Source: a virus (lineage: Duplodnaviria; Caudoviricetes). Taken from it: a DNA stretch of 64,000 bases. Location: IMG/VR virus record IMGVR_UViG_3300048861_000079, positions 1 through 64,000 of that record; one strand, 5' to 3'. Position 1 is the first letter of the stretch. Every line of letters begins with the position of its first letter. Below are positions 4,792 through 17,935 of this stretch, piece by piece. The notes under the pieces were generated by a model, which made no database searches, had not been told where the DNA came from, and worked only from the letters and a program-made list of their open reading frames with translations. The translations under genes were made by a program, and so were the position numbers.

Positions 4792-5655
4792 ATGACCCGC
4801 AAGAACAAAGCCGCCGCTGCCCCCGTCGTTTCTACGCCTGACCTCAACACATTCATGGGTGATATTGCCGGTGCCGCGGAAAACCTCGAAATGGAGGCTC
4901 TGCTGAAGGCCGAGGAGGAAGCTGCCCTTGAGAATGCCCGCCAGGCCGCCGAGGCCGAGGCTCAGGCCAACCAACCACCGGCCGACGAAGAGCCCGCACC
5001 AACCCATGACGAGCCGCTGATGGTGAACCATGTGCCGGGTGACATCAAGGTGATGATCGACAACGTCACGCCGGAGGCACGCCAGCAGAAGGCAGAAGAG
5101 ATCCGTTCAGAGCTTGCTGCCCGTGTCGCCCATGACACCGCCGGCGATCGCTCGATGGGTCCGGGTAAGCAGAACAGCCTGAAGAAGGCGGAGAAGGAAC
5201 TGGCGACGATGGGTGCAGCAGGCTTCTTCTGCGCCGTCGATATCGACCCCTCCTTCATTAACCGCAACATCGCAGGTGACGGGCGCTTCAACGTCTACGC
5301 CCTCGACAAGATCCGCGACCTGATCAGTGGCATCGGCGGCGGCTTCGTGCAGAACCCCATCAACCGCGCGGTCATCGCCTCCATGCTGAACTTCCGTGAC
5401 GCCGGTCTGCCGTTCACGATGGCGCACATGCAGGCAGCGATCAGCAGTGGCGTAAAGGTCGAGCGCGCGGTCGCAAAGCACCTGGTCCGGCACACCGTCG
5501 CACCGAGCACGGCACCGACGCAATCCTCGCAGATGTCACACGCCTTGCAGGTGATGGGCATTGCGACGGCGAGCACGATCGGGCGCGTGACCACCTTCAC
5601 GCTCACCGACACGCCACAGACCCGGCGCCTCGAGCAGGTGCTCCGGGCAGCCTGA
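4792..5655 (+). CDS. Hypothetical protein (287 aa), paralog of 7190-7777; possible C-terminal winged helix
   Basis: GGAGAG SD before ATG 4792; shares YA..K..[DE]L...I, N[FL][RK]...FT.A...A.IS and T..[AT]Q......AL motifs with the 7190 protein. Confidence 0.8.
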   Translation: MTRKNKAAAAPVVSTPDLNTFMGDIAGAAENLEMEALLKAEEEAALENARQAAEAEAQANQPPADEEPAPTHDEPLMVNHVPGDIKVMIDNVTPEARQQKAEEIRSELAARVAHDTAGDRSMGPGKQNSLKKAEKELATMGAAGFFCAVDIDPSFINRNIAGDGRFNVYALDKIRDLISGIGGGFVQNPINRAVIASMLNFRDAGLPFTMAHMQAAISSGVKVERAVAKHLVRHTVAPSTAPTQSSQMSHALQVMGIATASTIGRVTTFTLTDTPQTRRLEQVLRAA

Positions 5656-5674
5656 AACCAGAAGGGAGTGGGAG

Positions 5675-5698
5675 AGGGCGCCTGGGGCGTCCTTTTTC
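5675..5698 (+). terminator. Terminator hairpin
   Basis: AGGGCGCC-tg-GGGCGTCCT followed by T-run. Confidence 0.55.
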
Positions 5699-5905
5699 AT
5701 AGGTTTCAGACAGGGGTCGGGGCAGGAACGGCACAGGGAACGGGTTCCGCCGCCGGCCAGGCCACAGGCCATCCGACATTCTGCCAGGCCAACCTGAGGC
5801 CACGGGCGCCCATGGGTCTCCATGGGGACTGCTCTCCCATCCAAGTCACCTGCCGCTATCCGTATGAGCGCTTGCTAATCTTCATTATCAGCAATGGAGA
5901 GTGAC

Positions 5906-6061
5906 ATGACCAAGCTCATCAACGCCTACAAGACCTTCCCGGCAGACATCAAGGAGGACATCAAGGGTGCGCTTCACACCTGGCTCTCGGGTGTGACGGC
6001 TCTCGCCTTGATCGCCACCGTCGCCCTCTACGGGAAGGCGATCGCAGAGGCGCTGCACTAA
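5906..6061 (+). CDS. Small membrane protein (51 aa, MTKLINAYKTF...), not in ORF track
   Basis: GGAGAG SD, ATG 5906, TAA 6059-6061, hydrophobic C-terminal half. Confidence 0.65.
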   Translation: MTKLINAYKTFPADIKEDIKGALHTWLSGVTALALIATVALYGKAIAEALH

Positions 6062-6125
6062 CCTGCCGAAAAATCAGTAAATACTGAATAAAGTAATTCA
6101 GTAAGCAACACACAAGGAGAGACAA

Positions 6126-6467
6126 ATGTCTTACGTAACCGAAGTTTTCATGAACAGGCAGATCGCACAGGCTGCAGACGCGCTCGATCTCATCGAGGCA
6201 TGCAAGACGGCGAAGCTCAAGGAAGCGACAGCGGTCAAGCTCAAGCTCGTGGTTGACGAGATGCAGCGGGCAGCGAAGCGCTTCAAGGATCTCGCGGCAG
6301 ATCAGTCGGTTATGAGCGAGGGCGAGTTCTTCGCGAAAGCACTGGCGCGTGCGCAGGTGATCAAGAACGAGCGGGCAATCATTGCACGGATCGCACGCGA
6401 GAAGCGTGAGCGGGAAGCGGCTGAGCGTGAGGCACTGCAGAAGGAGCTCGCCCTCATCGCAGCGTAA
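6126..6467 (+). CDS. Helical/coiled-coil hypothetical protein; gene nearly CC-free
   Basis: AAGGAG SD; no Pro or Trp; downstream terminator. Confidence 0.8.
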   Translation: MSYVTEVFMNRQIAQAADALDLIEACKTAKLKEATAVKLKLVVDEMQRAAKRFKDLAADQSVMSEGEFFAKALARAQVIKNERAIIARIAREKREREAAEREALQKELALIAA

Positions 6468-6477
6468 CGGTTCAGCG

Positions 6478-6503
6478 ATAGGCGTCTCTTCGGAGGCGTC
6501 TAT
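6478..6503 (+). terminator. Terminator hairpin with TTCG loop
   Basis: ATAGGCGTCTC-ttcg-GAGGCGTCTAT then CTTT. Confidence 0.7.
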
Positions 6504-6723
6504 CTTTGCACCGTGGCCGCAGGGGTCGGAAACGGCGCGGGGTTCAGGAACGGCTTAGGATCATGGGATCCCCAGGCGGGCGGAGAGGAAGGGCGCCCGG
6601 CCGGGGACGGGTAGGGTTCCGCCGATTCCTAAAACCTTCGGTATTGGAATCGGCTTAGGTTCCCCTTCCCCTCTTCCGTCCCCTCCCCTCTCCCAGCCGA
6701 AAACCCTGGCCGGGTGATCCAGC

Positions 6724-6763
6724 CAGGGTTTCAGGAATTCAGGATTTATGGATTTCAGGGATT
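6724..6763. repeat. 5 x 8-bp direct repeat (CAGGATTT-like), centromere-like
   Basis: CAGGGTTT CAGGAATT CAGGATTT ATGGATTT CAGGGATT. Confidence 0.7.
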
Positions 6764-6955
6764 TTCCTTCTTGCAGTAGGCGGTAGTGGAGATCGTCAGC
6801 CCTGCCGGCAGCTTGTTGGTCGACGGCGTGAAGGCATCGACATAAGCCTGGCAGTCGGTCTGGGTGAGAAGGTGGTCGGCGATCATTTCGTCCGAGGTCG
6901 CCGGCTTTCCGGACACTGCGGTCCAGGTGGCTATGATCAAGGCGAAGGTCGGCAT
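6755..6955 (-). CDS. Small putatively exported protein with two Cys
   Basis: Hydrophobic N-terminus, C...C pair. Confidence 0.5.
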   Translation of the reverse strand: MPTFALIIATWTAVSGKPATSDEMIADHLLTQTDCQAYVDAFTPSTNKLPAGLTISTTAYCKKENP

Positions 6956-7149
6956 CAGTATGCCCAGCCCCAGGCCTTCCGGCCAGTGGCAAGGATGAAG
7001 CGCTTGGAGATCCAGAGGAAGCCATGACGGCTAAGCTCCATGCGCGGCGGATAGAACGGATTGGATTTGAACACCATGGGAACGGCTCGCATTTCAGGTG
7101 GAGAGTGGCGAGGAGGGCGCCAGGGACGCCCCGTAGGGCTTTCTGATGT

Positions 7150-7174
7150 AGCGAGCGCTTATGCAGCGCTCGCT
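7150..7174. terminator. Perfect hairpin downstream of the GG/CC-free gene
   Basis: AGCGAGCGCT-tatgc-AGCGCTCGCT; no clear U-tract. Confidence 0.5.
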
Positions 7175-7189
7175 TATGTAAGACGCTGC

Positions 7190-7777
7190 TTATGCAGCGT
7201 CTTCGTTCTCGTCTTCGCTCGTCTCGAAAGCACTCATGTCGATTTCGAGTTTCTTAGCGAGCGCGTAAGCGATCTCGTTTAGCTCGATTTCGTATGTGTC
7301 TTTCAGCGTTGCGTGCTCTTTGAGAATGTTGAGCGTCAACAGAGCGTCGATTGACGTCTGATGCTGCGCGTTCACAGTCTTTTCATCAAGAATAGCGCTG
7401 CGAACGAATATGACGTTCTGCTTTTCGTCAGTCGTCTTGTAGTCGCGTGAGATCGATGCTTTAGCATCTGCTTTCGTAAACAGCATGTTCTCACGCTTCA
7501 GATTGATGACAGTGCGCAGCATCGCAACAGTGTTCTTTTCGAGATTTGCGTCTTTGTGATCAAAGATCGCTGCGACGAGTTCAACAGCTTTGAACGTCGC
7601 ATACATAGCGCGCAGCAAGCGCTCTGCGCTGACGTTGCAGCGTTCGAGCATCGTTTCAACTGCTTGCTGCGAGACAATAGCATCGCAGCGCTTCAAGCGT
7701 TGAACGTTAGAAGAAGTCGAGTTCTTTGCAGCTGCAGCAGCGATGCGCGAAGAAAAAGCAGTGTTATAAGCGTTCAT
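7190..7777 (-). CDS. Hypothetical protein (195 aa) with no Gly/Pro/Trp, encoded by GG/CC-free DNA; paralog of 4792-5655
   Basis: Intact ORF; GAGAGA SD-like sequence; aligns by eye with the 4792 protein. Confidence 0.85.
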   Translation of the reverse strand: MNAYNTAFSSRIAAAAAKNSTSSNVQRLKRCDAIVSQQAVETMLERCNVSAERLLRAMYATFKAVELVAAIFDHKDANLEKNTVAMLRTVINLKRENMLFTKADAKASISRDYKTTDEKQNVIFVRSAILDEKTVNAQHQTSIDALLTLNILKEHATLKDTYEIELNEIAYALAKKLEIDMSAFETSEDENEDAA

Positions 7778-8046
7778 GTTCTTATCTCTCTATTTGAGCG
7801 TTGCTTGCTCGTTTCGTTAATCAGTGCGATTTGTTGTTCGTCATCTGATAAATATAGTTATAAGCGATGTCTTAGACGGATTCTATAGCGCTGATGGGGA
7901 TGCCTTCTGTGTCGACCGAGCTCCGGTGAGCCAAACCTCCCATGTCACTTTCCCGGATCTCAGATGCGCGATAGTCGCCTCCCCTATCCCGGCCAGCGCT
8001 ATCCCGAACCCCAATCCTCCCACGCCGATCTGCCCGATCAGTAAGT

Positions 8047-8078
8047 CCTGAAATCCATATTTCCGTAATTCAGGATCT
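8047..8078. repeat. 4 x 8-bp centromere-like repeats
   Basis: CCTGAAAT CCATATTT CCGTAATT CAGGATCT. Confidence 0.55.
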
Positions 8079-8085
8079 CCAGGGC

Positions 8086-8114
8086 TTGACTGTAAGTAAG
8101 TGTTTACTTACACA
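8086..8114 (+). promoter_or_regulatory. Sigma70-like tRNA promoter with operator palindrome (8092-8111) in the spacer
   Basis: TTGACT-17-TACACA; GTAAGTAAGTGTTTACTTAC. Confidence 0.75.
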
Positions 8115-8125
8115 TGGATCTCAGA

Positions 8126-8202
8126 CGCGGGATAGCTCAGCCAGGTAGAGCGGTGGCCTCATAAGCCACAGGTCATGGGATCGAAGCCCATTCCCGCAAC
8201 CA
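8126..8202 (+). tRNA. tRNA with CAT anticodon, initiator (fMet)-like but atypical
   Basis: Cloverleaf CGCGGGA/TCCCGCA, C1:A72 mismatch, loop CTCATAA, encoded CCA; T-loop ATCGAAG. Confidence 0.9.
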
Positions 8203-8206
8203 ACAT

Positions 8207-8282
8207 TGGTTCGTAGCTCAGTTGGGAGAGCGGGTGACTGTTAATCACCGGGTCGCAGGTTCGAGCCCTGCCGAACCAGCCA
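8207..8282 (+). tRNA. tRNA-Asn(GTT)
   Basis: Canonical cloverleaf TGGTTCG/CGAACCA, loop CTGTTAA, TTCGAGC T-loop, CCA. Confidence 0.95.
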
Positions 8283-8297
8283 ACCAAAGGCTAGTCT

Positions 8298-8822
8298 ATG
8301 ATCCCTCCCTACCGTAATGCCGTCTGCCGGGGCTCTCTTGCCCTTGGAACCGCTTGCCGCCGCTGCGAGCGCTGTGATGCCGAACGCGAGCAGATGCGCG
8401 CGCAGCAGGTCTCTGCCGAGAAGTCCGATGCTCATCAGCCGACGATCAACGTCGTCGTCAATGCAACGGAGTTGAAGGCTGCGCCTGATATCGCCCAAAA
8501 GGTCAAGGACGCGCTGGCGGGCTCGATGCGCTTCCACAGTGGCGGTGTCGCTGGTCTGCCTGTCAAGGGCTACAAGAAGGAGCAGCCCGCGCACCTGGTC
8601 GCCCTGGTGAACGAGAACAAGCTTCTCGAGGAACTCGTGCTGCGTCAGATCACCTGCCACGTCAGGACCGACGGCATTGACCAGCGCTTCGTCGCCCTCG
8701 CCCGCACCAAGATCCAGGAAGCCTTCATGGACCTCAACCGGGCCGTCTTCCAGCCGCAGCGCATCGAGGACATGGACGGCACCACGGCGCTGATCGTCAA
8801 GCTTTTGGACCGGAGCAACTGA
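8298..8822 (+). CDS. Acb2/Tad1-like nucleotide sponge domain with Cys-rich N-terminal extension
   Basis: GLPVKGY...VALVNENK..EE...QRFVALARTKIQEAFMDLNRAVFQP resembles the Acb2 pattern; CRRCERC N-terminus. Confidence 0.6.
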   Translation: MIPPYRNAVCRGSLALGTACRRCERCDAEREQMRAQQVSAEKSDAHQPTINVVVNATELKAAPDIAQKVKDALAGSMRFHSGGVAGLPVKGYKKEQPAHLVALVNENKLLEELVLRQITCHVRTDGIDQRFVALARTKIQEAFMDLNRAVFQPQRIEDMDGTTALIVKLLDRSN

Positions 8823-9358
8823 TGTCCGTGATCGTCTACGACGTCAGGAACGGCCTGATGTGCTCTGACACCCGCGCCTATGGCGGCGACAGCCACCCGA
8901 TCGGCAACAAGCGCAAGATCCATCGCCTATCCGACGGCTCGCTGCTGGGCATGTCCTCTTCGCAGCCGGGAGTGCCTGAGGAGTTCAAGGCCTGGATTGA
9001 GCGTGGCGCCAAGCTCGAGGACTACGGCCCCACCTCGCCCGATATCGAAGCGCTCCTGGTCAAGCCCAATGGCGACGTCTTCCTGTTTTCGGACAGTTAC
9101 TACGCCGCTGGTCCTCTGACTGGCGACGTGTTCACCGTTGGGTCCGGCAAGAAGTATGCGCTGGGCGCCCTACGTGCCGGCGCTGACGCGCAGCGGGCCG
9201 TAGAGGTGGCCTGTGAGTGCGATACGATGTGCGGCGGCCCTGTGACCGCTCTCAAGCTGTTCGAAGCCACCCCTGAGCCTCCTGTTCCGGTTTCTGGCGC
9301 CGTGAGCGTTGTAGACGAAGCCATTGACTGGCTCGCTGCTCCTGAAACCCTGAATTAA
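8822..9358 (+). CDS. HslV/proteasome-beta-like Ntn peptidase
   Basis: N-terminal SVIV...SDTR; GSGKKYALGAL; D..CGG. Confidence 0.75.
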   Translation: MSVIVYDVRNGLMCSDTRAYGGDSHPIGNKRKIHRLSDGSLLGMSSSQPGVPEEFKAWIERGAKLEDYGPTSPDIEALLVKPNGDVFLFSDSYYAAGPLTGDVFTVGSGKKYALGALRAGADAQRAVEVACECDTMCGGPVTALKLFEATPEPPVPVSGAVSVVDEAIDWLAAPETLN

Positions 9359-9370
9359 GGATTTCAGGAA
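9341..9370. repeat. 8-bp centromere-like repeats in inverted arrangement
   Basis: CCTGAAAC CCTGAATT AAGGATTT CAGGAA. Confidence 0.65.
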
Positions 9371-9595
9371 ATGCGTAATCCCTTCTCCGATGACGAGGAT
9401 CTCGATGTGGCAGCCGTAAATCTTACGGCCGGCCTCGCTCGCATGTCCGACGGCTCGATGCGGCCGATCACCAACATGTTCGACATCGATGGTGACGACA
9501 CCGATGACCCGGTCGCTGCCATGAGCTGTGTCGTCAAGGATCACGAGGATCGCTGGCTCGCCGTCGACCTCCTCGGTTTCGATGATCCCGACTGA
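9371..9595 (+). CDS. Acidic hypothetical protein
   Basis: CAGGA SD, phage-like codon use. Confidence 0.7.
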   Translation: MRNPFSDDEDLDVAAVNLTAGLARMSDGSMRPITNMFDIDGDDTDDPVAAMSCVVKDHEDRWLAVDLLGFDDPD

Positions 9596-9910: not shown

Positions 9911-10180
9911 TTATTTATTACTGTTCTTTTCCTGCCAGGCTTCGAAGCTCTCCATCAACAGGTCGATCATTTTCATGTTACCGGCCGCCGCGGTCATCTT
10001 GAACCGCTTGTGCCAGGAGAGCGGAACAGAGAACGACAGCATGAACTTCTTTTCGTCCTTCATGTTCTTGGCTGCGCCGACGGGCTGATTTGCCTGCTCG
10101 CCGAGGAAACTGGACTGCTGTTTTCGCTTCGGTGCGGCGACCTCAGCTCTGGAAGGGGCCTTTCCTGCTTCTGCTGTCAT
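9911..10180 (-). CDS. ParG-like ribbon-helix-helix centromere-binding protein
   Basis: Overlaps parA stop; flexible N-terminus plus RHH pattern MLSFSV/LSWHKRFK/KMIDLLMESF. Confidence 0.75.
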   Translation of the reverse strand: MTAEAGKAPSRAEVAAPKRKQQSSFLGEQANQPVGAAKNMKDEKKFMLSFSVPLSWHKRFKMTAAAGNMKMIDLLMESFEAWQEKNSNK

Positions 10181-10833
10181 GCTGCTTCTCCAAGACGTGT
10201 GACGTGGGCAACGATCTCTGCCGCGAGTAGGTCGGCCGTCTCTTCCAGACGCGCGGTATTGAGCCCTTGCACCTCCGATAAAGCATAGCCCTGGTTCTGG
10301 GCGCGTTGGTAGCTCGTTTTCGCCGTAATGTGGTTTTCGGCGACCGTGAAATGCGTTGCCTGACGGAGATAGTTGCGCGCCTCGATTACGGCAACCCGGC
10401 TTTCCGTCGTCTTGTTGAGCACGAAGAGAATCCGGTCCTTCTCGATGCCTTTCTCAACAAGCTCATTGGCGAACATTAGCTGGGGCTGAAGATCGTCCAG
10501 GGGCAGGCCCGTCGGCACGATGATCAGATCGGACACGCGGGCGATCTCCATCGAGCTCTGATCCGAGTCCGGGCGACCGTCCGCAACCACCAGATCGAAG
10601 TCCTCTTTACGCAGCTGTGTCGGGCGATTGTATTCTTCGCCGAGGATTGGTGGTTCGATTCCCGCGGCGGCGCGCGTGCCGCACCAGTTTACGGAGGTTT
10701 TCTGCTTGGTGTTGAAGTCGGCGATCTTCACTTGCCAACCGTGGCTCGCATAAGTGCGGGCAACCAGGCGGGCGAGGGTGGATTTGCCGACCCCGCCTTT
10801 CTGGGAGAGACAAGCAATTACCAGTTCAGCCAT
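10177..10833 (-). CDS. parA: Type Ib ParA partition ATPase
   Basis: Deviant Walker A QKGGVGKST; short 218 aa, no N-terminal HTH. Confidence 0.92.
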   Translation of the reverse strand: MAELVIACLSQKGGVGKSTLARLVARTYASHGWQVKIADFNTKQKTSVNWCGTRAAAGIEPPILGEEYNRPTQLRKEDFDLVVADGRPDSDQSSMEIARVSDLIIVPTGLPLDDLQPQLMFANELVEKGIEKDRILFVLNKTTESRVAVIEARNYLRQATHFTVAENHITAKTSYQRAQNQGYALSEVQGLNTARLEETADLLAAEIVAHVTRLGEAA

Positions 10834-10907: not shown

Positions 10908-11366
10908 CTATACCGTGAAGCCGAGACCGGGCATCTCGGTCTTCCTGCGCTCGTAGTCCGGAGCGCCGAAGTCCAGCGGTTCGAACATGTCCAGGTCGAA
11001 GATCTCCTCGACCTGCGCCGGCGTCAGATCAAGCACCTTCCAGCGGTAGATCGTCTCGCATACGGCCATGTTGACAAAGCTCTCCGCGTCTGCCGGAACA
11101 TGATAGCGCTGCAGCAGCTTGTGGATCTCCTGATCACCCATGATCTCGCGCTGATAATCCTCGATGCGGAAGTGCATCTTCTTGATCTCGAACTCCCGGC
11201 GCTGGATGGTAGGGGCGGGGATCAGCATGTCGTCATCGAGTGAGCCCGGCACGAAGTGATTGATCGAGTCCGGATCGAGCCATTCCAGAACGACGCGCGG
11301 GCCGGACGCGTGCTGTGGGCGAACATGCAGCTCGCCCACCAGTTCGTTCTGCGACCAGACCTGCAT
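10908..11366 (-). CDS. Hypothetical protein
   Basis: Coupled to the kinase gene (TGATG overlap). Confidence 0.75.
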   Translation of the reverse strand: MQVWSQNELVGELHVRPQHASGPRVVLEWLDPDSINHFVPGSLDDDMLIPAPTIQRREFEIKKMHFRIEDYQREIMGDQEIHKLLQRYHVPADAESFVNMAVCETIYRWKVLDLTPAQVEEIFDLDMFEPLDFGAPDYERRKTEMPGLGFTV

Positions 11367-11938
11367 CAGATCTCGCCCCTGTAGACCGGCTGACCAATGA
11401 CGGCGATCAGCTTCTCCATCAGGTCGGCGCGGGCGTCATCCGGCGACAGGCCGCGCGCCAGGCCATCGTTGAAGATGACGTGATCGGCATATTCCGGATT
11501 GTAGCGGTCGAACTCGTAAGGGAAGGGGCCTGCAAGCGGGTTCTTGATCTCAAGCACCAGCGCGCCCTGTTCCTTCCAGTAGCGACCCTGTTCGCGCCGG
11601 ACGGATCCAAACGTCGACAAGGCACCCTTCGGACGGGCGTTGTGGCTCATGATCGGGATGATGTCGCCGCCGAACTTCTCTTCGAAGGCATTGCCGATCT
11701 CGCCGAGGATCTCGCGCACGGTCCATTCACGACCGTTAAGCATGACCTTCTCGAGCTTGCCTTCCTGGGTGAAGACCTGGTCATGGGTCAGACCCATGTA
11801 GTTGATGGCGATCATGCGCAGCGGGCGGCCGTCGTCAGCAACATCATGGCCGTAGACTTCATGAATAATTTCGGCAGCGGTGGTCTTGCCGCTAGTGGGG
11901 TTGCCGCAGAGGGCAATAATCTTAGGCAATGCAGACAT
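11366..11938 (-). CDS. Deoxynucleoside monophosphate kinase (T4 gp1-like)
   Basis: IIALCGNPTSGKTT P-loop; REILGEIG; DHVIFNDG. Confidence 0.8.
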   Translation of the reverse strand: MSALPKIIALCGNPTSGKTTAAEIIHEVYGHDVADDGRPLRMIAINYMGLTHDQVFTQEGKLEKVMLNGREWTVREILGEIGNAFEEKFGGDIIPIMSHNARPKGALSTFGSVRREQGRYWKEQGALVLEIKNPLAGPFPYEFDRYNPEYADHVIFNDGLARGLSPDDARADLMEKLIAVIGQPVYRGEI

Positions 11939-12038: not shown

Positions 12039-12212
12039 ACTGCTTTCCGTATCGCCGGCCATGGTGCGCAGCCGCATCGCCAGGATCTTGACCTGGCCCT
12101 TCAGCCTTTCGTTATCCGCGCGCAGCTTGGCGTTTTCGGACTCGAGGTGATCCGCGGACAGGATCGACTGTCCGCGGGCGTTGAAGAAGTGGATCGGATC
12201 TACGGGCTTCAT
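12021..12212 (-). CDS. Small coiled-coil hypothetical protein
   Basis: ATGA overlap with the helicase stop. Confidence 0.6.
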   Translation of the reverse strand: MKPVDPIHFFNARGQSILSADHLESENAKLRADNERLKGQVKILAMRLRTMAGDTESSISLNS

Positions 12213-13866: not shown

Positions 13867-14607
13867 ATGCGCAACATCGAATTTCTTAATGTGCCCGTCG
13901 GGCAGCTCAGAAAGAACCCCTGGAATACCAACAAGGTCACGCCCGGCAACGAGGCGAAGATCCGGGCCTCGCTCGAGCGCAACGGCATGTTCAAGCCGAT
14001 TATCGTTCGCCAGGTCGAAGACGTTCCCGGTTTCGAGATCCTGGGCGGCGAGCACCGCTGGGAACAGGCCATCGCCATCGGTGCCGAGGAGGTGCCGATC
14101 GCCAATCTCGGGTTCATTTCGGACAAGCAGGCCAAGGAAATTGGGGTGATCGACAACAGCCGCTATGGCGCTGACGACACCCTGTCGTTTGCTGAGCTCC
14201 TGAAGGAGCTTGGTGATGTTGATGAATTGCAAGGTTTTCTTCCGTTAGGATCCGCAGATCTCGATGCTATTTTCTCAGCTTCTACTATAGCGCTGGACGC
14301 GCTGGAAATTGACGAAAACTTCGAAAGGGATTTGGAGCAGGAAGAGGAAGTAAAGCCGACCAAGGCGCCGAAGACGCATATTGTCATGCGCTTCAAGCTT
14401 TCTTTGGGTGACGCAGAGCGCCTTACCGCTCTGATCGCCAAGACCCAGAAGTCCGAGGGATATACTTCCGAAGACGATCTTACCAATGCCGGCGATGCGC
14501 TGGTTCACCTCTTGTCCGGATCGATGACCACCAGCCCTGTCGCCTTCACGGGTGACGAGGAGCTCGAGGCGATGATGGACGCTGCCCTCAAGGATGACGC
14601 CGAATGA
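13867..14607 (+). CDS. ParB/Srx N-terminal domain protein
   Basis: NPWNTN...GMFKPIIVR...GGEHRW. Confidence 0.85.
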   Translation: MRNIEFLNVPVGQLRKNPWNTNKVTPGNEAKIRASLERNGMFKPIIVRQVEDVPGFEILGGEHRWEQAIAIGAEEVPIANLGFISDKQAKEIGVIDNSRYGADDTLSFAELLKELGDVDELQGFLPLGSADLDAIFSASTIALDALEIDENFERDLEQEEEVKPTKAPKTHIVMRFKLSLGDAERLTALIAKTQKSEGYTSEDDLTNAGDALVHLLSGSMTTSPVAFTGDEELEAMMDAALKDDAE

Positions 14608-15260
14608 AGCACTTCCCGATCGAACTCTGGGATATCGACCAGCTTGTGCCTTATAAGGCCAATGCCAAGAAGCATCCGCCCGAACAGATCGAGGCGCTGG
14701 CGAATCTGATCAAGAAGTCCGGCTGGACCCAGCCGATCGTGGTCTGGCAGAACGGCGAGATCATCGCTGGTCACGGCCGCCGCCTGGCTGCCATTCATCT
14801 TGGCCTGGCAAAGGTTCCGGTCATCGTCCGATCGGACATCACCAAGGCCGAGGCGGATGCACTGCGCCTGGCCGACAACCGCGTCACGTCCACCGACTAC
14901 GACCAGGCTGCCATCCAGATCGAGCTGCAGCGCCTTTCCGGCGAGCTCGACGGTGAATTGCAGCTGACCGACCTCGGCTTCACTGACAAGGAACTCGACT
15001 TCACGCTCGGCGAGCTGGGCGAGATCAACAGTGACTTCTTCGTGGACGATATCGGCGCTGCTGTCGAAGAGCAGAAGAAGGAAAACGAGAAGAAGGTCGA
15101 GGCGACCGACGACACGGCCGCTCCCGTCGGCGATGCCCTCGGCTTCAAGCGCGTCACGATCGCCGAATCTCGCCAACTGCGCGAGCTGATGGCTCGCATC
15201 GAGGAGCGCTCCGGCAAGAAGGGCGTCGAGGCGCTCATCTACACGCTCCAGAATTCCTGA
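14604..15260 (+). CDS. ParB/Srx N-terminal domain protein (methylase-associated type)
   Basis: PY..NAKKH...GWTQPIVV...IIAGHGRRLAA...RLADNR. Confidence 0.85.
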   Translation: MKHFPIELWDIDQLVPYKANAKKHPPEQIEALANLIKKSGWTQPIVVWQNGEIIAGHGRRLAAIHLGLAKVPVIVRSDITKAEADALRLADNRVTSTDYDQAAIQIELQRLSGELDGELQLTDLGFTDKELDFTLGELGEINSDFFVDDIGAAVEEQKKENEKKVEATDDTAAPVGDALGFKRVTIAESRQLRELMARIEERSGKKGVEALIYTLQNS

Positions 15261-15279
15261 TTTCCTGAATTAAGGTTTT
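15256..15279. repeat. 3 x 8-bp centromere-like repeats
   Basis: CCTGATTT CCTGAATT AAGGTTTT. Confidence 0.55.
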
Positions 15280-15283
15280 ACTA

Positions 15284-15721
15284 ATGTCCGAAGAAGGCGC
15301 CCAGGTCATTTCACTCGCAACCCGCAAGCCCTGGCACGAGGAGCAGGCTGAAAAGCGCAAGCAGCGCCGCTCGGATGCCCAGAAGAAGCGGCACGAGAAG
15401 AACCAGGCGAAGAAGGATCACAAGACCACCCAGCTTCAGATGCTCGATGAGATCCGGGCGCTGGTCGAAGCCGACAAGTTCGAAGGCCTGCTGATTGTCG
15501 GCCGCGATCCTACGACCAAGAACTTCTACAACGACTTCGTCCTCGACGTGACCACCGTCCCGCTCAATGACTATTACGCCTATGCGGGCGTCCTTCAGAC
15601 GCTCGCAGTAGAGCTCCAGCAGTGCGCCACGATGGCGCCGGCGCTGATGGCCGACGGGTCGACGCTTGATCCGTATCTCGAGGAACCGGAAGTTGTCTAC
15701 CTCGAGGGTGACTTCGAATGA
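15284..15721 (+). CDS. Hypothetical protein
   Basis: In operon; basic N-terminus. Confidence 0.75.
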   Translation: MSEEGAQVISLATRKPWHEEQAEKRKQRRSDAQKKRHEKNQAKKDHKTTQLQMLDEIRALVEADKFEGLLIVGRDPTTKNFYNDFVLDVTTVPLNDYYAYAGVLQTLAVELQQCATMAPALMADGSTLDPYLEEPEVVYLEGDFE

Positions 15722-16353
15722 CCGAATATACCATCACCCGCAAGTTCAACACCTCCGTCGAGCGCTCGGCGCGCGTGCTGGAGATTGCCGAGAGCTTCGG
15801 CCTCGGTCTCTCCGATAAGGAATTCGTCGTCTATGACGGCCTGACAATCGACGTGAAGCCGGCCGATGTCGTCTACATCACCGGTCAGTCGGGCTCCGGC
15901 AAGTCGCTGCTGCTGCGTGATCTGTCGTCCCAGATGACCGCCGCCGGCCTCAAGGTCGCCGATCTCAACAAGATCGAGCTCGAGGAGCGGCCTGTTGTGG
16001 AGCTGCTCGGCAAGTCCACCAATGAGGCACTCGATCTCCTGGCAAAGGCCGGCATCTCGGACGCCTGGATCTATATTCGAAAGCCGTCGGAGCTCTCCGA
16101 CGGTCAACGCTACCGTCTGAAGCTGGCAATGCTCATGGACTCGGACGCCGATGTTTGGATCGCTGACGAGTTCGGCGCCGTCCTGGACCGCGTGACGGCC
16201 CGTGTGGTCGCCTTCTCGATGCAGAAGGTGTCTCGCCGCGCCGGCAAGACCTTCATGGTCGCCACCACGCATGATGACATGGTCGCTGAGCTGGCGCCGG
16301 ATCTCACCATCACGAAGCGCTTTCGCGAAAAGGTGGAGGTTGTCTCCGCATGA
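15718..16353 (+). CDS. Soluble ABC-family ATPase
   Basis: GQSGSGKS, LSDGQ signature, IADEF, TTH. Confidence 0.9.
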   Translation: MTEYTITRKFNTSVERSARVLEIAESFGLGLSDKEFVVYDGLTIDVKPADVVYITGQSGSGKSLLLRDLSSQMTAAGLKVADLNKIELEERPVVELLGKSTNEALDLLAKAGISDAWIYIRKPSELSDGQRYRLKLAMLMDSDADVWIADEFGAVLDRVTARVVAFSMQKVSRRAGKTFMVATTHDDMVAELAPDLTITKRFREKVEVVSA

Positions 16354-16643
16354 ATTACGGCGAAGCGCTCGAATTCGTGAAGAGGGGAGGGGCTGCACGT
16401 CGCAAGGACTGGTCCGCGAAGGAGCGAATTTACCTGGAGCAGGGTAGTCGCGACACCACCAGGCTTTTTGGATCCACGCGGCTTGCGGCAGTTCTAAACG
16501 CCGAGCTCTTCCAGAGTGGCGACAAGGGCACGGTGACGCGCCTTCCGAACATCAATCGCAAGACGGCCGGCGGCGAGACCGAGACTGGCTACAACCCCTC
16601 CCAGCTCGATCAGCTGGCCGAGGATTGGGAGATCATCGAATGA
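16350..16643 (+). CDS. DUF2829/Tad2-family protein (Thoeris anti-defence sponge-like)
   Basis: MNYGEAL..K.G...R..W and PSQ.D.LAEDW motifs. Confidence 0.8.
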   Translation: MNYGEALEFVKRGGAARRKDWSAKERIYLEQGSRDTTRLFGSTRLAAVLNAELFQSGDKGTVTRLPNINRKTAGGETETGYNPSQLDQLAEDWEIIE

Positions 16644-16963
16644 GTAACCGCGGCTGGATTGGCGTCGACCTAGACGGCACTCTGTTCACCTATGACACCT
16701 GGCGCGGCATCGACCATGTCGGCGAACCGATCATGCCGATGATCAATCGGGTGAAGCAGTGGCTCGCCGAAGGTAAGGATGTCCGCATCTTCACCGCCCG
16801 CTGCGCCGGCCCGGAAGACTGTCGGCCGGCAATCGAACGCGCCTGCCTCGAGCACATCGGACAAGTCTTGCCGATCACCAACATCAAGGACTTCGGCCTG
16901 ATCGAACTCTGGGACGATCGCGCCGTGCGGGTCGAGTTCAACACGGGTCGGAGGATCCAGTGA
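16640..16963 (+). CDS. HAD-family phosphatase
   Basis: IGVDLDGTL, FTAR, WDDRA. Confidence 0.8.
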   Translation: MSNRGWIGVDLDGTLFTYDTWRGIDHVGEPIMPMINRVKQWLAEGKDVRIFTARCAGPEDCRPAIERACLEHIGQVLPITNIKDFGLIELWDDRAVRVEFNTGRRIQ

Positions 16964-17079
16964 CCGCCATCATTTTGTTCGTTCTCGCTATCGCGTTCGT
17001 CGTTCACTCAGAGATCAAGCATAAGCAGCGTCAGGAAGACGCAGACAAGCGCGAGGGCTCGAGCCGTGAGCATGATTGA
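16960..17079 (+). CDS. Small membrane peptide (39 aa), not in ORF track
   Basis: GTG overlaps the previous stop; hydrophobic N-terminus; TGA at 17077-17079. Confidence 0.45.
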   Translation: MTAIILFVLAIAFVVHSEIKHKQRQEDADKREGSSREHD

Positions 17080-17935
17080 TATCGAGACACTGATCGAGAG
17101 AAACGCGAGCCCTCGCGCTTCTTTCGCGCTCGCGAAGGAGATGTTCGTTGAGCGCGGATCTAAGGACGATTGGGAGCTGCTGCACGATCTGCACTACAAG
17201 GCGGAAGGCCTGCCGATCGGACCTCAGTTCTGGAAGCTGACGCTTCAAGGTCAGACGATCGGCGTGCTGGTCATCGGCCAGCCGAAGGGCATGTTGCGCG
17301 AGCGGCACATCGTCTTTCCGCGCCTGGCGCCCGGCTCCGGCGAGACCAGGCTCACCAACACCAATCGCTACCACTACATCAACGCCAACTTCCGGGTGGT
17401 CTCGCGCTTCGTCATCGACACGATGTATCGCGGCATCGGCGCCGGCTACCGGATGATGAACCTGGTCGCGCGCCTGGATGGACACCAGTTCATCGAAATC
17501 CAGTCTTCGATGTCGAAGTTCAATGCCTTCGGCCAGAAGGCAGGGTTCAAGTTCGTGCGTCCGATGAACGCCAACAAGTTCGAAGCCGGGATGAAGTTCT
17601 TCCGGACCTACTTCAGCGCGAGCCCGCAGGATTTCGAGGCGATCGTCGCCGAGATCGAGGCACATCCGAACAGCGAAGGCCTGATCCAGGCAGCCAAGGA
17701 GTTCTACCAGAAGAATTCGGCGCTGGAGAACACCGGCTCGAGCCGCGACCGGGCAGATGCGCGCGTTGCGGCCATGACGGCACGCGACGTGATCAAGGGC
17801 ATTCAGCAGATGAGCCTGGCGTCTCCGATGTATGGCGTCTGGAAGAACCCGGACCTCGGCCGCACCGATATGCCGGAGCGTCTGCCTCTGACGGCGTTCG
17901 ATCGCCAGGCGCCGACGGCAAGGCTGGTGCTGTAA
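17066..17935 (+). CDS. GNAT (Mom-like) acyltransferase, candidate DNA-modifying enzyme
   Basis: LHY motif; SRFVIDTMYRGIGAG acyl-CoA-binding motif; context with ABC ATPase, ParB and terminase. Confidence 0.7.
   Translation: MSMIDIETLIERNASPRASFALAKEMFVERGSKDDWELLHDLHYKAEGLPIGPQFWKLTLQGQTIGVLVIGQPKGMLRERHIVFPRLAPGSGETRLTNTNRYHYINANFRVVSRFVIDTMYRGIGAGYRMMNLVARLDGHQFIEIQSSMSKFNAFGQKAGFKFVRPMNANKFEAGMKFFRTYFSASPQDFEAIVAEIEAHPNSEGLIQAAKEFYQKNSALENTGSSRDRADARVAAMTARDVIKGIQQMSLASPMYGVWKNPDLGRTDMPERLPLTAFDRQAPTARLVL

Follow-up and report, generated by a model that had tools for sequence, protein, structure and literature searches.

Why would a virus keep one small gene, and the untranslated DNA on either side of it, free of every GG and every CC, and what might read these two words? 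The question is raised by the window, a stretch of 64,000 nucleotides of DNA from a virus of the Caudoviricetes (IMG/VR record IMGVR_UViG_3300048861_000079), and by the 86,931-bp contig to which it belongs. Positions 1-25000 share 75-79% nucleotide identity, over up to 51%, with Rhizobium phages B1VFA, V1VFA-S, RHph_X66 and RHEph10 and with plasmids pLM21S1 and pRlX6. Relatives sit on contigs of 104-122 kb. With gene order and sequence similarity shared in the region of the packaging, helicase and ParB genes, the element is placed among the Rhizobiales phage-plasmids of the RHEph10/pLM21S1/B1VFA (SSU5-like) family, elements of ~115-122 kb. A ParA-type ATPase is encoded at 10177-10833; in relatives, repC is reported (PMC12509600, PMC5537653).

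An island without GG or CC

A dinucleotide scan of both strands finds no GG and no CC in the 741 bp from 7138 to 7878, exactly the stretch that an earlier note on this DNA had marked out; what that note described of the sequence holds throughout. The last preceding GG starts at 7137, and the next lies at 7878. From the island's own base composition (GC 0.478 vs 0.597 in the window) ~85 GG+CC would be expected, which agrees with the 80-90 estimated before. Along the contig, for which the earlier note had proposed a sliding GG+CC count, this gap stands alone: the runner-up measures 86 bp in the window and the whole contig, and a contig-wide comparison finds a comparable gap in no other dinucleotide pair. 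The other 115 kb carries GG/CC at 0.79 of expectation. Is any other word banned? A k-mer depletion search over the pooled islands found none beyond GG/CC, and GCGC, AGCT, TCGA and GATC are abundant within the island.

The features of the locus are the following:

7138..7878, no strand: GG/CC-free island, found by GG/CC scan; a whole expression unit, from promoter spacer and -10 through leader and gene to the 3' hairpins
6468..7137, no strand: non-coding spacer with the contig's densest GG/CC tract (at 6514-6714, 66 in 200 nt against a median of 28)
7190..7777, minus strand: gene A; its 195-aa translation contains no Gly, Pro or Trp
7778..7885, minus strand: 5' control region of gene A, read by eye and from an alignment of seven lineages
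7880-7885, minus strand: -35-like TAGAAT, placed by eye
7865-7876, minus strand: TCTAAGACATCG, invariant word in the 17-nt spacer (alignment of seven lineages)
7857-7862, minus strand: -10-like TATAAC, placed by eye
7892..7907, minus strand: GAAGGCATCCCCATCA, invariant upstream word just beyond the island, shared by clades whose proteins are about 35% identical
7150..7203, minus strand: two tandem 3' hairpins (7180-7203 and 7150-7174), -46.1 kcal/mol, z = -8.07
7123..7130, minus strand: GGCGTCCC, which recurs upstream in direct orientation as GGCATCCC (7897-7904); together they bracket the island

The flanks had been called rich in GG/CC, and indeed the tract at 6514-6714 is the densest of the contig, with a second peak at 5643-5843; read as gene A's sense strand, the flank before the island is rich in G and the one after it rich in C. 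Runs of 50-86 nt free of GG/CC also lie 5' of other genes, and their reading as "purged promoters" was rejected, as AT-rich promoters yield such runs by chance.

Can the coding sequence account for the gap? Synonymous resampling of gene A with the codon usage of the genome gives a mean of 54 GG/CC; when only codons without an internal GG/CC are allowed, 30 still arise at codon junctions; and shuffling the gene's own codons leaves a mean of 22 (minimum 11 in 5000). The observed number is 0. The codons GCC, ACC and TCC are also shunned, though their amino acids occur. Each untranslated flank (101 nt on the 5' side and 52 nt on the 3' side, close to the ~100 and ~50 bp given before) would be expected to hold ~7 GG/CC, and none is present.

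A sigma-70/terminator scan did not call the promoter of gene A; the promoter, transcription start and transcript ends proposed here were read by eye and are putative. The purge begins 2-3 nt past the -35-like hexamer and so includes the spacer and the -10, about 28 nt before the putative start, in all clades. Within the control region TCTAAGAC-TCG is invariant in the seven-lineage alignment and single-copy in the window, and GAAGGCATCCCCATCA has its sole exact copy there, next to two weaker matches with 2-3 mismatches. The leader is A-rich and about 70 nt long, and its ribosome-binding region, AGAGAGA, lacks GG, in keeping with the earlier description of an SD-like GAGAGA rather than GGAG.

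At the other end, what had been described as a hairpin of alternating GC proves to be two strong ones, both built from GC/CG steps alone. The stop codon of gene A sits in the loop of the first (GCUGCAUAAGCAGC), a U-tract is absent after them, and phage B1VFA has an equivalent stop-in-loop hairpin. The island ends 12 nt beyond the second hairpin, and therefore almost equals the putative transcript in the window; in B1VFA the purge continues 100-190 nt past a canonical hairpin-plus-T-run terminator. The bracket around the island recurs in lineages L001-L004, and its copy after the island also in L010 (about 45 nt downstream) and L008 (200 nt further on); this GGCRTCCC element partly overlaps short GC hairpins and was not built on. 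Rfam reports two tRNAs as its only matches in the window, and nothing in the island flanks.

Gene A is a recoded paralog

What does this unit encode? Being written without GG and CC, it yields a protein without glycine, proline and tryptophan, as the earlier note had read from the translation. These three make up 13.4% of the residues in the contig's long ORFs, and the probability of finding none in 195 is ~7e-13. The homologs (12 close and 73 representative clusters) are nearly all free of them as well. In the protein an N-terminal helical domain is followed by a winged-helix domain in the C-terminal part, and an acidic tail closes with Ala-Ala. Its AlphaFold2 model (pLDDT 95.7) shows in residues 79-180 a three-helix bundle (helices 81-95, 102-109 and 132-148) followed by a beta-hairpin wing (strands 152-154 and 161-164), which matches winged-helix domains with VIA-align Z of 8.1-6.5: 8.1 for Scc1-C, 8.0 for JetA and 7.4 for MukF, with histone H1/H5 and MarR-type domains also among the matches. 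Because a Z of about 8 is middling, the model supports the winged-helix fold class and no specific family. Pfam, PHROG, NCBIfam and PDB sequence profiles gave no match, a Foldseek search of the PDB returned weak tandem winged-helix rows alone, and a structure search of BFVD returned uncharacterised viral proteins alone, probably members of the same family.

A related protein is encoded close by, among the neighbouring genes:

4792..5655, plus strand: long paralog, 287 aa, ordinarily encoded with normal Gly/Pro content, convergent with gene A (hhalign)
6126..6467, plus strand: gene B, 113 aa, helical; sense strand without CC for 312 nt (6139-6451), with 24 GG

The C-terminal ~190 residues of the long paralog are homologous to gene A (hhalign 99.4%, E 2.6e-21, 185 columns), and the synteny of the two is retained across the family. 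Gene A is thus a recoded paralog, free of Gly, Pro and Trp, of the winged-helix-containing C-terminal part of a core protein encoded 1.5 kb away. The long paralog falls into 102 clusters, all unnamed and mostly on contigs of 104-122 kb; neither it nor gene B matches a family in Pfam, PHROGs, NCBIfam or PDB sequence profiles. Around the unit lies an anti-defence neighbourhood with Acb2/Tad1-hairpin and Tad2-like proteins, and one relative carries the RNA ligase RtcB. Genes for tRNAs adjoin it: X66 encodes a tRNA-Trp at this place, and in B1VFA a pseudo-tRNA whose anticodon is CCA stands there. In the B1VFA record, the unit sits about 42 kb from the start.

Selection and the strand rule

Is the island an accident of one genome? 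Equivalent islands of 450-1531 bp surround the gene A ortholog in about 35 related loci and persist where protein identity has fallen to about 25%. They come from cultured phages and plasmids that were sequenced independently and from many metagenomes, and the longer ones are operons read in one direction. A random substitution in the island would make a GG/CC in 27.6% of cases, and relatives that differ from it at 138-379 positions contain none. Since they diverge this far and ~35 loci keep the purge, selection rather than chance or artefact is at work, and the absence of GG/CC is kept by purifying selection on the dinucleotide itself. This is also the outcome of the homolog comparison that the earlier note had suggested. 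Its further claim, that the constraint bears on the nucleic acid and not solely on the protein, is borne out likewise, because the purge takes in every reading frame as well as the untranslated flanks under such selection, and is held across deep divergence.

The close gene A family had no relatives among GTDB genomes and IMG/VR, and tblastn with a distant member (P0036) returned the same Rhizobium phages only, the family not being seen in enterobacterial SSU5-like elements. One relative's contig ends at 7137, for which the simplest reading is that the island diverges below the 90% threshold.

Homologs with ordinary GG/CC had been named as the finding that would speak against a constraint. A minority are indeed relaxed (L027 and L020, and L016 for CC only), and the constraint is therefore conditional, not absent. 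The way in which it relaxes is instructive. In L016, L017, L021 and L033 the sense CC is back (28, 10, 5 and 6), mostly in synonymous NCC codons, with sense GG at 0-2; L027 has relaxed both words, and L018 and L032 are strict sister lineages. Small genes in the neighbourhood lie on either DNA strand, and each lacks GG in its own sense. The ban thus follows the direction of transcription: sense GG (template CC) is the strictest rule, and sense CC a second, weaker one. Gene B adds a complication. In the clade of B1VFA, X66, pLM21S1 and L012 its sense strand carries 2-9 GG (expected 23-28) with CC near normal; in the window's clade it has 0-3 CC (expected 22-25) and tolerates 11-24 GG; and in L011 both words are near zero. 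A polarity by sense strand shows in several genes; gene A itself is purged on both strands and in the DNA that is putatively not transcribed.

What might read GG and CC

According to the earlier note, the unit has to function at a time when GG/CC sites are modified or attacked, a proposal that is supported by a purge extending over all frames and the flanks. In which molecule, then, are the words read? The reading that we place first, tentatively and at less than an even chance, is that a mark or lesion at GG:CC on the DNA stalls RNA polymerase, and that the purged unit is immune to it. A chemical mark or lesion would be set on the DNA at the GG:CC step, either by a factor of the host or by the phage's own operon of ParB, ParB, ABC ATPase and GNAT proteins. 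Host RNA polymerase would stall chiefly at marks on the template strand. Lacking GG:CC, the unit would remain transcribable on marked or unmarked DNA, from the virion or as a plasmid, and could supply a DNA-binding regulator, as stand-in or partner of the long paralog, while ordinary genes are blocked.

Several observations favour such a mark. A single reader of double-stranded DNA explains a purge of both strands with one word. The purge reaches the putative promoter spacer and -10 and, in B1VFA, extends beyond the terminator. A block on the template strand predicts both the strictness of sense GG and a ban oriented with the gene. The densest GG/CC tracts flank these genes, as conditional barriers would.

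The candidate for writing the mark lies beside the terminase:

13867..17935, plus strand: candidate DNA-marking operon (Pfam, PHROG, JGI name, Foldseek)
13867-14607, plus strand: ParB_N protein of the operon
14604-15260, plus strand: second ParB_N protein of the operon
15718-16353, plus strand: ABC ATPase (Pfam ABC_tran E 7e-13; phrog_293, phrog_886)
16350-16643, plus strand: Tad2-like protein of the operon
17066-17935, plus strand: 289-aa GNAT-fold protein (AlphaFold2 and Foldseek)

The order is ParB_N, ParB_N, a 145-aa protein, ABC ATPase, Tad2-like, a 112-aa protein and the GNAT-fold protein, and this operon is the most conserved of the family. Homologs bear the JGI name "ABC-type ATPase with predicted acetyltransferase domain". 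The Pfam GNAT match of the 289-aa protein is below threshold (E 0.095). Its AlphaFold2 model (pLDDT 81.5) matches many GNATs in Foldseek with probability 0.97-1.0, among them NAT10 (9j3c, E 2.3e-4), TmcA (2zpa) and Mu Mom (8bv8, E 8.7e-4), and RGIGAG, taken as the acyl-CoA binding motif, is invariant in its alignment. On this modelled structure it is a true GNAT fold, Mom- and NAT10-like.

Related cases come from other phages. T4 Alc halts RNA polymerase on unmodified cytosine DNA. Mu Mom is a GNAT enzyme of phage DNA base modification (PMC7261163), and ParB-like phage proteins activate post-replicative DNA base modifiers with dinucleotide-level specificity, the thymine dioxygenases being both ParB-activated and dinucleotide-specific (PMC13229309). 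The likeness to Mom-type modification lies in the terminase-adjoining operon and in a fold that matches Mom and NAT10/TmcA, known here from genes and models. The difference is that this operon does not co-vary with the purge, and that neither Mom nor T4 is known to have a gene freed of the target word.

The same point weighs against the operon as author. The earlier note had proposed this Mom-like cluster as the source of the mark; the cluster is real, it has a GNAT fold and the strand pattern fits, but a tie to GG/CC did not emerge, and a connection between operon and island is hypothetical. Strict and relaxed lineages alike (the relaxed ones being L027, for both words, and L016, for CC alone) preserve its ABC ATPase and its GNAT protein with 66-83% identity; were the operon the writer, the relaxation would have to come about in some other way. 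Gene B of the window's clade, with its reverse polarity, would in turn need an unproven antisense transcript, and we know of no phage DNA mark that blocks host RNA polymerase on the template strand only.

The close rival places the reader at the RNA. The transcript would have to lack GG (and, for gene A, CC) so as to evade a dinucleotide-reading endoribonuclease, RNA-modifying enzyme or translational repressor at work in infected or carrier cells, an idea close to the GG/CC-specific RNase or DNA-damaging toxin of the earlier note. Gene A would be a first responder or backup, its mRNA intact and translatable while others are inactivated. This is possible, though we would sooner doubt it than believe it. 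In its favour, the ban tracks the sense strand of each gene on either DNA strand, GG and CC behave as two separable rules, the ribosome-binding region lacks GG in an A-rich leader, the window's island nearly equals the putative transcript, and the genes of longer islands form operons with a common direction. The anti-defence neighbours (Acb2/Tad1-hairpin, Tad2-like) and the RtcB of one relative fit as well, and relaxation without loss of the GNAT operon is what a host-encoded, host-variable reader would produce. Of the DNA compared with a soil metatranscriptome, the island alone is matched by RNA-library contigs, three identical ones, and the other 3 kb by none, although strand, ends and expression level are not readable from them and such libraries can contain DNA. 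Dinucleotide-specific RNA readers occur in defence, such as CmdT at GA and Sulfolobus Csx1 at C-C, and site-free mRNAs escape endoribonucleases, as ACA-less messages do under MazF; T4 RegB cuts GGAG in early messages. Like these cases, the island offers one message usable while others are inactivated, with a ban on the sense strand and an SD-like element that shuns GGAG. Unlike them, it bans two words, which requires two readers or one that reads both GG and CC, and the purge spans about 28 nt of putative promoter DNA in all clades and 100-190 nt past the B1VFA terminator. In the window's clade, moreover, gene B of the same phage tolerates 24 GG and gene A none. These hosts are not known to have a GG-specific RNase or repressor, and this analysis found no candidate for either, nor a cognate RNase.

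Could the words be held out of the reach of host immunity to DNA, as CRISPR PAMs (type I-F/I-A/I-B CC, Cas9 NGG) or as parts of GG/CC restriction sites? Both words commonly serve as PAMs, gene A lacks them on either strand, and avoidance of motifs such as restriction sites and PAMs is well documented in phages and plasmids, where a short word is likewise held out because it is read. Here, unlike there, the word is a bare dinucleotide, its removal is total, is limited to one expression unit, is tied to the direction of transcription and costs three amino acids. A PAM-free stretch of 741 bp shields nothing when the other 115 kb holds 0.79 of the expected GG/CC; PAM or restriction reading ignores the direction of transcription, whereas the ban turns with the gene and each of the two words relaxes on its own; and palindromes such as GCGC, AGCT, TCGA and GATC are plentiful, with no other k-mer depleted. 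This candidate, also raised in the earlier note, is now improbable.

Less probable still is an escape at the level of codons, in which Gly, Pro and Trp codons (and CGG and AGG) would be avoided so that translation could go on once a defence system had cleaved or depleted their tRNAs. The nearly G/P/W-free gene A family suits it, as do the adjoining tRNA genes with the tRNA-Trp of X66 and the CCA pseudo-tRNA of B1VFA, but it is contradicted by the out-of-frame and non-coding purge: 22-30 junction GG/CC are expected and 0 seen, ~150 nt of untranslated flanks are purged too, and GCC, ACC and TCC are avoided though their amino acids are used. Finally, a functionless assembly or synthetic artefact, or a footprint of local hypermutation without selection, has nothing but the oddity of the island in its favour and is refuted, to the point of near certainty, by the same island in independently sequenced phages, plasmids and metagenomes, by a conserved protein with a model at pLDDT 95.7, and by substitutions that never create GG/CC.

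A further comparison is with the phage DNA that enters and is expressed first, the first-step-transfer region of T5 and the leading end of T7 with gene 0.3. Like these, the island would be a small early unit near anti-defence genes, at work ahead of the remaining genome or without it; unlike them, its product is a winged-helix protein and not a DNA mimic, and the RNA-library contigs suggest expression outside synchronized infection.

The searchable literature yielded no description of GG- or CC-free genes or islands. New in this analysis are the paralogy of gene A, the strand-aware ban, the GNAT fold in the operon and the RNA-library contigs confined to the island. The total removal of a dinucleotide, with three amino acids lost and held across deep divergence, is an unusually strong signature of selection, and the gene A family is a natural case of a well-folded domain made from 17 amino acids. 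The strand rule, the recoded pair of paralogs and the naturally relaxed lineages provide experimental handles, together with the culturable relatives B1VFA (on R. leguminosarum VF39SM), RHph_X66 and RHEph10.

What does this mean for the family? The purge implies that some factor reads the two-letter GG/CC step during gene expression. We consider it an even call whether these phages are confronted with, or themselves produce, a so far undescribed reader of the bare GG:CC step, and keep a core DNA-binding protein recoded in 17 amino acids as a backup for all conditions. If this is true, the purged unit is a genomic footprint by which a new class of dinucleotide-specific factors that mark or cut DNA or RNA may be found. 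To identify the reader might bring to light a new kind of phage DNA modification by which transcription is gated, or a defence of a new type with dinucleotide specificity.

Composition and anatomy of the purged unit

Between positions 7138 and 7878 of the window neither strand carries a single GG or CC, exactly as the earlier note had claimed. The gap is 741 bp long; in the window, as in the whole 86,931-bp contig, no other GG/CC gap exceeds 86 bp, and a contig-wide gap scan revealed no comparable gap for any other dinucleotide pair. The GC content of this island is 47.8%, against 59.7% for the window, and its own composition predicts ∼85 GG and CC, within the 80-90 that the note had expected by chance. 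Gene A (7190-7777, minus strand) encodes a 195-aa protein whose translation is indeed free of Gly, Pro and Trp; these amount to 13.4% of the residues in the long ORFs of the contig, so that their absence by chance has P ∼7e-13. Synonymous resampling of gene A with the genome codon usage gives 54 GG/CC, resampling restricted to codons without internal GG/CC gives 30, at codon junctions, and a reshuffle of its own codons over synonymous positions still leaves 22 (minimum 11 in 5000 shuffles); the observed number is 0. Both flanks of the gene, 101 nt on the 5' side and 52 nt on the 3' side, are purged as well, with ∼7 GG/CC expected in each. It is the nucleic acid that is constrained, whatever the frame, and the proposal that the constraint acts on DNA or RNA, not only on the protein, holds.

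When the islands of eleven loci are pooled, GG and CC occur at 0.02 of expectation and CG and GC at 1.7-1.8, with all other 3- and 4-mers represented. Flanking the genes are the densest GG/CC tracts that the 87-kb contig has (66 per 200 nt at 6514-6714 and 58 at 5643-5843; median 28), and gene A's strand is rich in G upstream and in C downstream. These two non-coding spacers include TCCCCTTCCCC-type repeats.

The alignment of seven lineages, read on gene A's strand, gives this 5' anatomy:

7892-7907, gene A's strand: invariant word GAAGGCATCCCCATCA, just beyond the island edge
7880-7885, gene A's strand: -35-like hexamer TAGAAT (TTGAAC or TCGACA in relatives)
7865-7876, gene A's strand: invariant word TCTAAGAC(A/T)TCG, filling the 17-nt spacer and unique in the window
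7857-7862, gene A's strand: -10-like TATAAC
Leader, gene A's strand: A-rich, ∼70 nt, with AGAGAGA instead of a GGAG-type Shine-Dalgarno element

The promoter is a by-eye reading, and a consensus scan gave no call there; the spacer word looks like an operator. In all lineages the purge begins 2-3 nt past the -35 hexamer. At the 3' end of gene A come two strong hairpins (z = -8.07), and the island of the window ends 12 nt past the second one; the GG-free Shine-Dalgarno-like element and a hairpin inside the island had both been spotted earlier. The first hairpin, GCUGCAUAAGCAGC (7190-7203), holds the gene A stop codon in its four-base loop and at the same time specifies the Ala-Ala of the C-terminus. 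Phage B1VFA (locus L006, 6519-6534) has this stop-in-loop motif too, at ∼38% protein identity; there, a hairpin with a T-run is followed by purged DNA for 100 nt (CC) to 190 nt (GG) more. In longer islands, gene A is followed in the same direction by one or two additional small ORFs of 48-126 aa, likewise free of Gly, Pro and Trp; they are seen in plasmid pLM21S1 (locus L008, 6605-6910) and in the related loci L029, L024, L030, L035 and L038, and these ORFs have no known family. As a direct repeat, the 8-mer GGCRTCCC frames the island in the window and several relatives; its overlap with small GC hairpins is the reason why it was set aside as a functional element.

Selection and paralogy in a phage-plasmid family

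Sequence comparison places the source of the window among Rhizobiales phage-plasmids of the RHEph10/pLM21S1/B1VFA group, with 75-79% nucleotide identity over the helicase, ParB, terminase, portal and capsid region to the Rhizobium phages B1VFA, V1VFA-S, RHph_X66 and RHEph10 and the plasmids pLM21S1 and pRlX6; the similarity of the portal reaches enterobacterial SSU5-like plasmids. Elements of this type have been described as phage-plasmids (PMC12509600, PMC5537653, PMC7969092). The neighbourhood of the island includes:

8126-8282: tRNA-Met and tRNA-Asn
8298-8822: Acb2/Tad1-hairpin protein
10177-10833: ParA
11366-11938: dNMP-kinase-like protein, 190 aa, matching phrog_139 (phage deoxynucleoside monophosphate kinase) with E 1e-17
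12209-13792: helicase
13867-17935, plus strand: operon of two ParB_N proteins, an ABC ATPase, a Tad2-like protein and a 289-aa protein, directly before the terminase

Deoxynucleoside monophosphate kinases are a usual feature of phages with salvage of host DNA or with modified nucleotides. The Acb2/Tad1-hairpin protein (8298-8822) and the Tad2-like one (16350-16643) are predicted sponges of defence-signal nucleotides, and neither gene is purged of GG/CC. Plasmid pRlX6 (locus L009, 31950-33392 and 34814-37305) carries an RtcB RNA ligase and a NUDIX and nicotinate phosphoribosyltransferase pair, which suggests RNA repair and NAD-regeneration counter-defence in the family. A tRNA-Trp (CCA) in RHph_X66 (locus L005, 4327-4400) lies ∼1.5 kb upstream of the Trp-free gene A homolog, as does a pseudo-tRNA with anticodon CCA in B1VFA (L006, 4543-4613); at the equivalent place the window has tRNA-Met and tRNA-Asn only. 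The 767-aa product of 355-2658, in which a SASA (sialate O-acetylesterase-like) domain was recognised, is probably a tail fibre or receptor-modifying enzyme.

The gene A protein has 12 close homologs at 56-90% identity, and a profile search of 1.8 billion representatives returned 73 clusters, most of ∼180-200 aa and nearly all without G, P and W. Among the related loci, the island is found around every close homolog examined (757 bp in L002, 758 bp in L003 and L004, with three exceptions in L001), in cultured phages and plasmids at 30-39% protein identity (851 bp in B1VFA, 1334 bp in pLM21S1, one exception each in X66 and RHEph10), and in very distant members (968 bp in L012, >1 kb in L010, two exceptions in L011). 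Anchoring on the neighbouring long paralog (4792-5655, plus strand, 287 aa) gathered 26 IMG/VR loci, of which 24 have the short gene within 2-3 kb, mostly in islands of 450-1531 bp. GG or CC would arise from 27.6% of all possible single substitutions in the window island; despite 138 aligned differences in L003, 193 in L002 and 310-379 in L014, L015, L019 and L032, not one was created (P 5e-20 or lower). Selection targets the dinucleotide itself. Because substitutions among relatives never create GG/CC, an artefact, to which we give next to no credence, and neutral hypermutation are excluded. Strong selection, still at work, keeps this complete expression unit free of GG:CC throughout a deep phage-plasmid family.

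In the RHEph10 GenBank record the gene-A region (locus L007, 5884-6564, gp148) is annotated on the opposite strand, and the long-paralog ORF (L007, 8609-9499, gp142) shows 13% identity only and looks like a wrong frame; the gene caller was probably misled by the odd composition.

The AlphaFold2 model of the gene A protein (pLDDT 95.7, pTM 0.90) comprises a five-helix N-terminal domain followed, at residues 79-180, by a C-terminal winged helix; the latter aligns with kleisin, linker-histone, ORC and MarR-type winged helices (VIA-align Z 8.1-6.5), which supports the fold class and no particular family; sequence searches of Pfam, PHROG, NCBIfam and PDB gave no matches. Pairwise BLASTP with the 287-aa protein is insignificant (E 0.8); when the profile of the short family (72 sequences) is set against that of the long paralog's family, the probability is 99.4% and E 2.6e-21 over 185 columns. 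Conserved motifs are recoded from the long paralog to gene A, STAPTQ to T..AQ.Q and TLGI to LNI. Homology and recoding together mark gene A as a reduced-alphabet copy of the C-terminal part of the longer protein, winged-helix domain included. The latter has ordinary Gly/Pro content, an additional N-terminal region of ∼95 residues and a family of 102 clusters, mostly on 104-122 kb contigs, and it is encoded by a core gene of the phage-plasmids. The two genes are neighbours, convergent and both retained throughout the family: a recoded paralog pair, with the purged unit juxtaposed to the densest GG/CC tracts of the contig. Ala-Ala C-termini are present in gene A, gene B (6126-6467, plus strand, 113 aa), the long paralog and most members of both protein families.

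Strand polarity of the ban

The sense strand of gene B lacks CC for 312 nt and has 24 GG; throughout the window's clade sense CC numbers 0-3 vs 22-25 expected. In the B1VFA/X66/pLM21S1 clade and L012, sense GG falls to 2-9 vs 23-28 expected, with sense CC at 21-31 vs 36-43 (roughly 60-75%), and gene B of L011 is without both. As for gene A, sense CC has returned with GG still purged in L016 (CC 28, GG 2), L017 (10, 0), L021 (5, 1) and L033 (6, 0), mostly as synonymous NCC codons, the signature of a relaxed constraint on the CC word alone. Both words are relaxed in L027 (CC 14, GG 18) and L020 (CC 58, GG 17), and no lineage shows GG returned with CC purged. Other small genes of the region have a GG-free sense strand on either DNA strand: two of them occur in L012, one per strand, and in L021 they form a 4-kb run on the plus strand. 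The ban bears more strictly on GG in the sense strand and goes with the orientation of the gene, not with a fixed genome strand; therefore, the reader acts on the transcript, or on DNA during transcription. The reversed polarity of gene B in the window's clade is explained by no model without an additional antisense transcript.

In a soil metatranscriptome (X2), three contigs identical to the window (7208-7436, 7508-7658 and 7690-7840) all fall inside the island, and none elsewhere in 5600-9400; given one contig there by construction, the chance for the other two is ∼0.04. Such contigs show neither strand nor level, and RNA libraries can contain DNA, so they are only a hint that the unit is transcribed while its neighbours are not.

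What reads GG and CC

The reading we tentatively place first, at clearly less than even chances, is that DNA carries a mark or lesion at its GG:CC steps. Its author might be the family's ParB-ABC-GNAT operon or a host factor; RNA polymerase would be stalled, mainly when the mark is on the template strand, and the GG:CC-free unit would be immune, expressible in every DNA state. One double-strand word would explain the two-strand purge, the strand hierarchy, and the purged promoter spacer, -10 and post-terminator DNA.

The 289-aa protein of the operon (17066-17935) is the most conserved among the proteins examined (521 clusters, the best 120 at at least 66% identity), and several homologs bear the JGI name "ABC-type ATPase with predicted acetyltransferase domain". 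Its model (pLDDT 81.5) has a GNAT fold, and its alignment an invariant RGIGAG. Among the Foldseek matches are the ATP-dependent cytidine N4-acetyltransferases NAT10 and TmcA as well as Mu Mom (E 2.3e-4 to 1.3e-3); ordinary GNATs reach similar scores, which leaves these hits unspecific. The operon's ABC ATPase partner and its two ParB-like proteins are confirmed. A dinucleotide-specific mark made by it is plausible by analogy, because phage ParB-like proteins activate post-replicative DNA base modifiers with dinucleotide-level preferences, e.g., NTC and NTG (PMC13229309). The ABC ATPase and GNAT protein persist at 66-83% identity in contigs that kept the purge (L018, L032) and in those where GG and/or CC returned (L027, L016, L021), with no co-variation between operon and ban. 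The Mom-like cluster put forward earlier as a possible GG/CC marker has a GNAT fold, an ATPase and ParB-like partners in its favour, and the missing co-variation against it.

A close rival of the DNA mark, possible though doubtful, is escape at the RNA level from a nuclease, modifier or repressor that reads dinucleotides. In its favour are a rule tied to the sense strand, bans on GG and CC that are separable, an anti-defence neighbourhood, relaxation without operon loss and the metatranscriptome hint, but two readers would be needed, and the purge outside the inferred transcript is left unexplained. Some mechanism other than those considered is a lesser, though appreciable, prospect. Avoidance of PAMs or restriction sites, a candidate of the earlier note, is improbable: GG and CC relax separately, and a polarity that follows gene direction argues against it, as it does against replication- or packaging-linked explanations. 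Codon- or tRNA-level escape is disfavoured and very improbable, since GG and CC are missing from codon junctions and untranslated flanks too.

The searchable literature yielded no description of dinucleotide-free gene units. New here are the confirmed paralogy, the strand hierarchy with its naturally relaxed lineages, the GNAT operon that does not co-vary, the folds of both proteins and the RNA hint. Compared with motif avoidance, the GG/CC-free unit is an extreme, gene-scale and strand-aware variant; should its reader turn out to be a new system specific for dinucleotides, the unit would count as categorically new.
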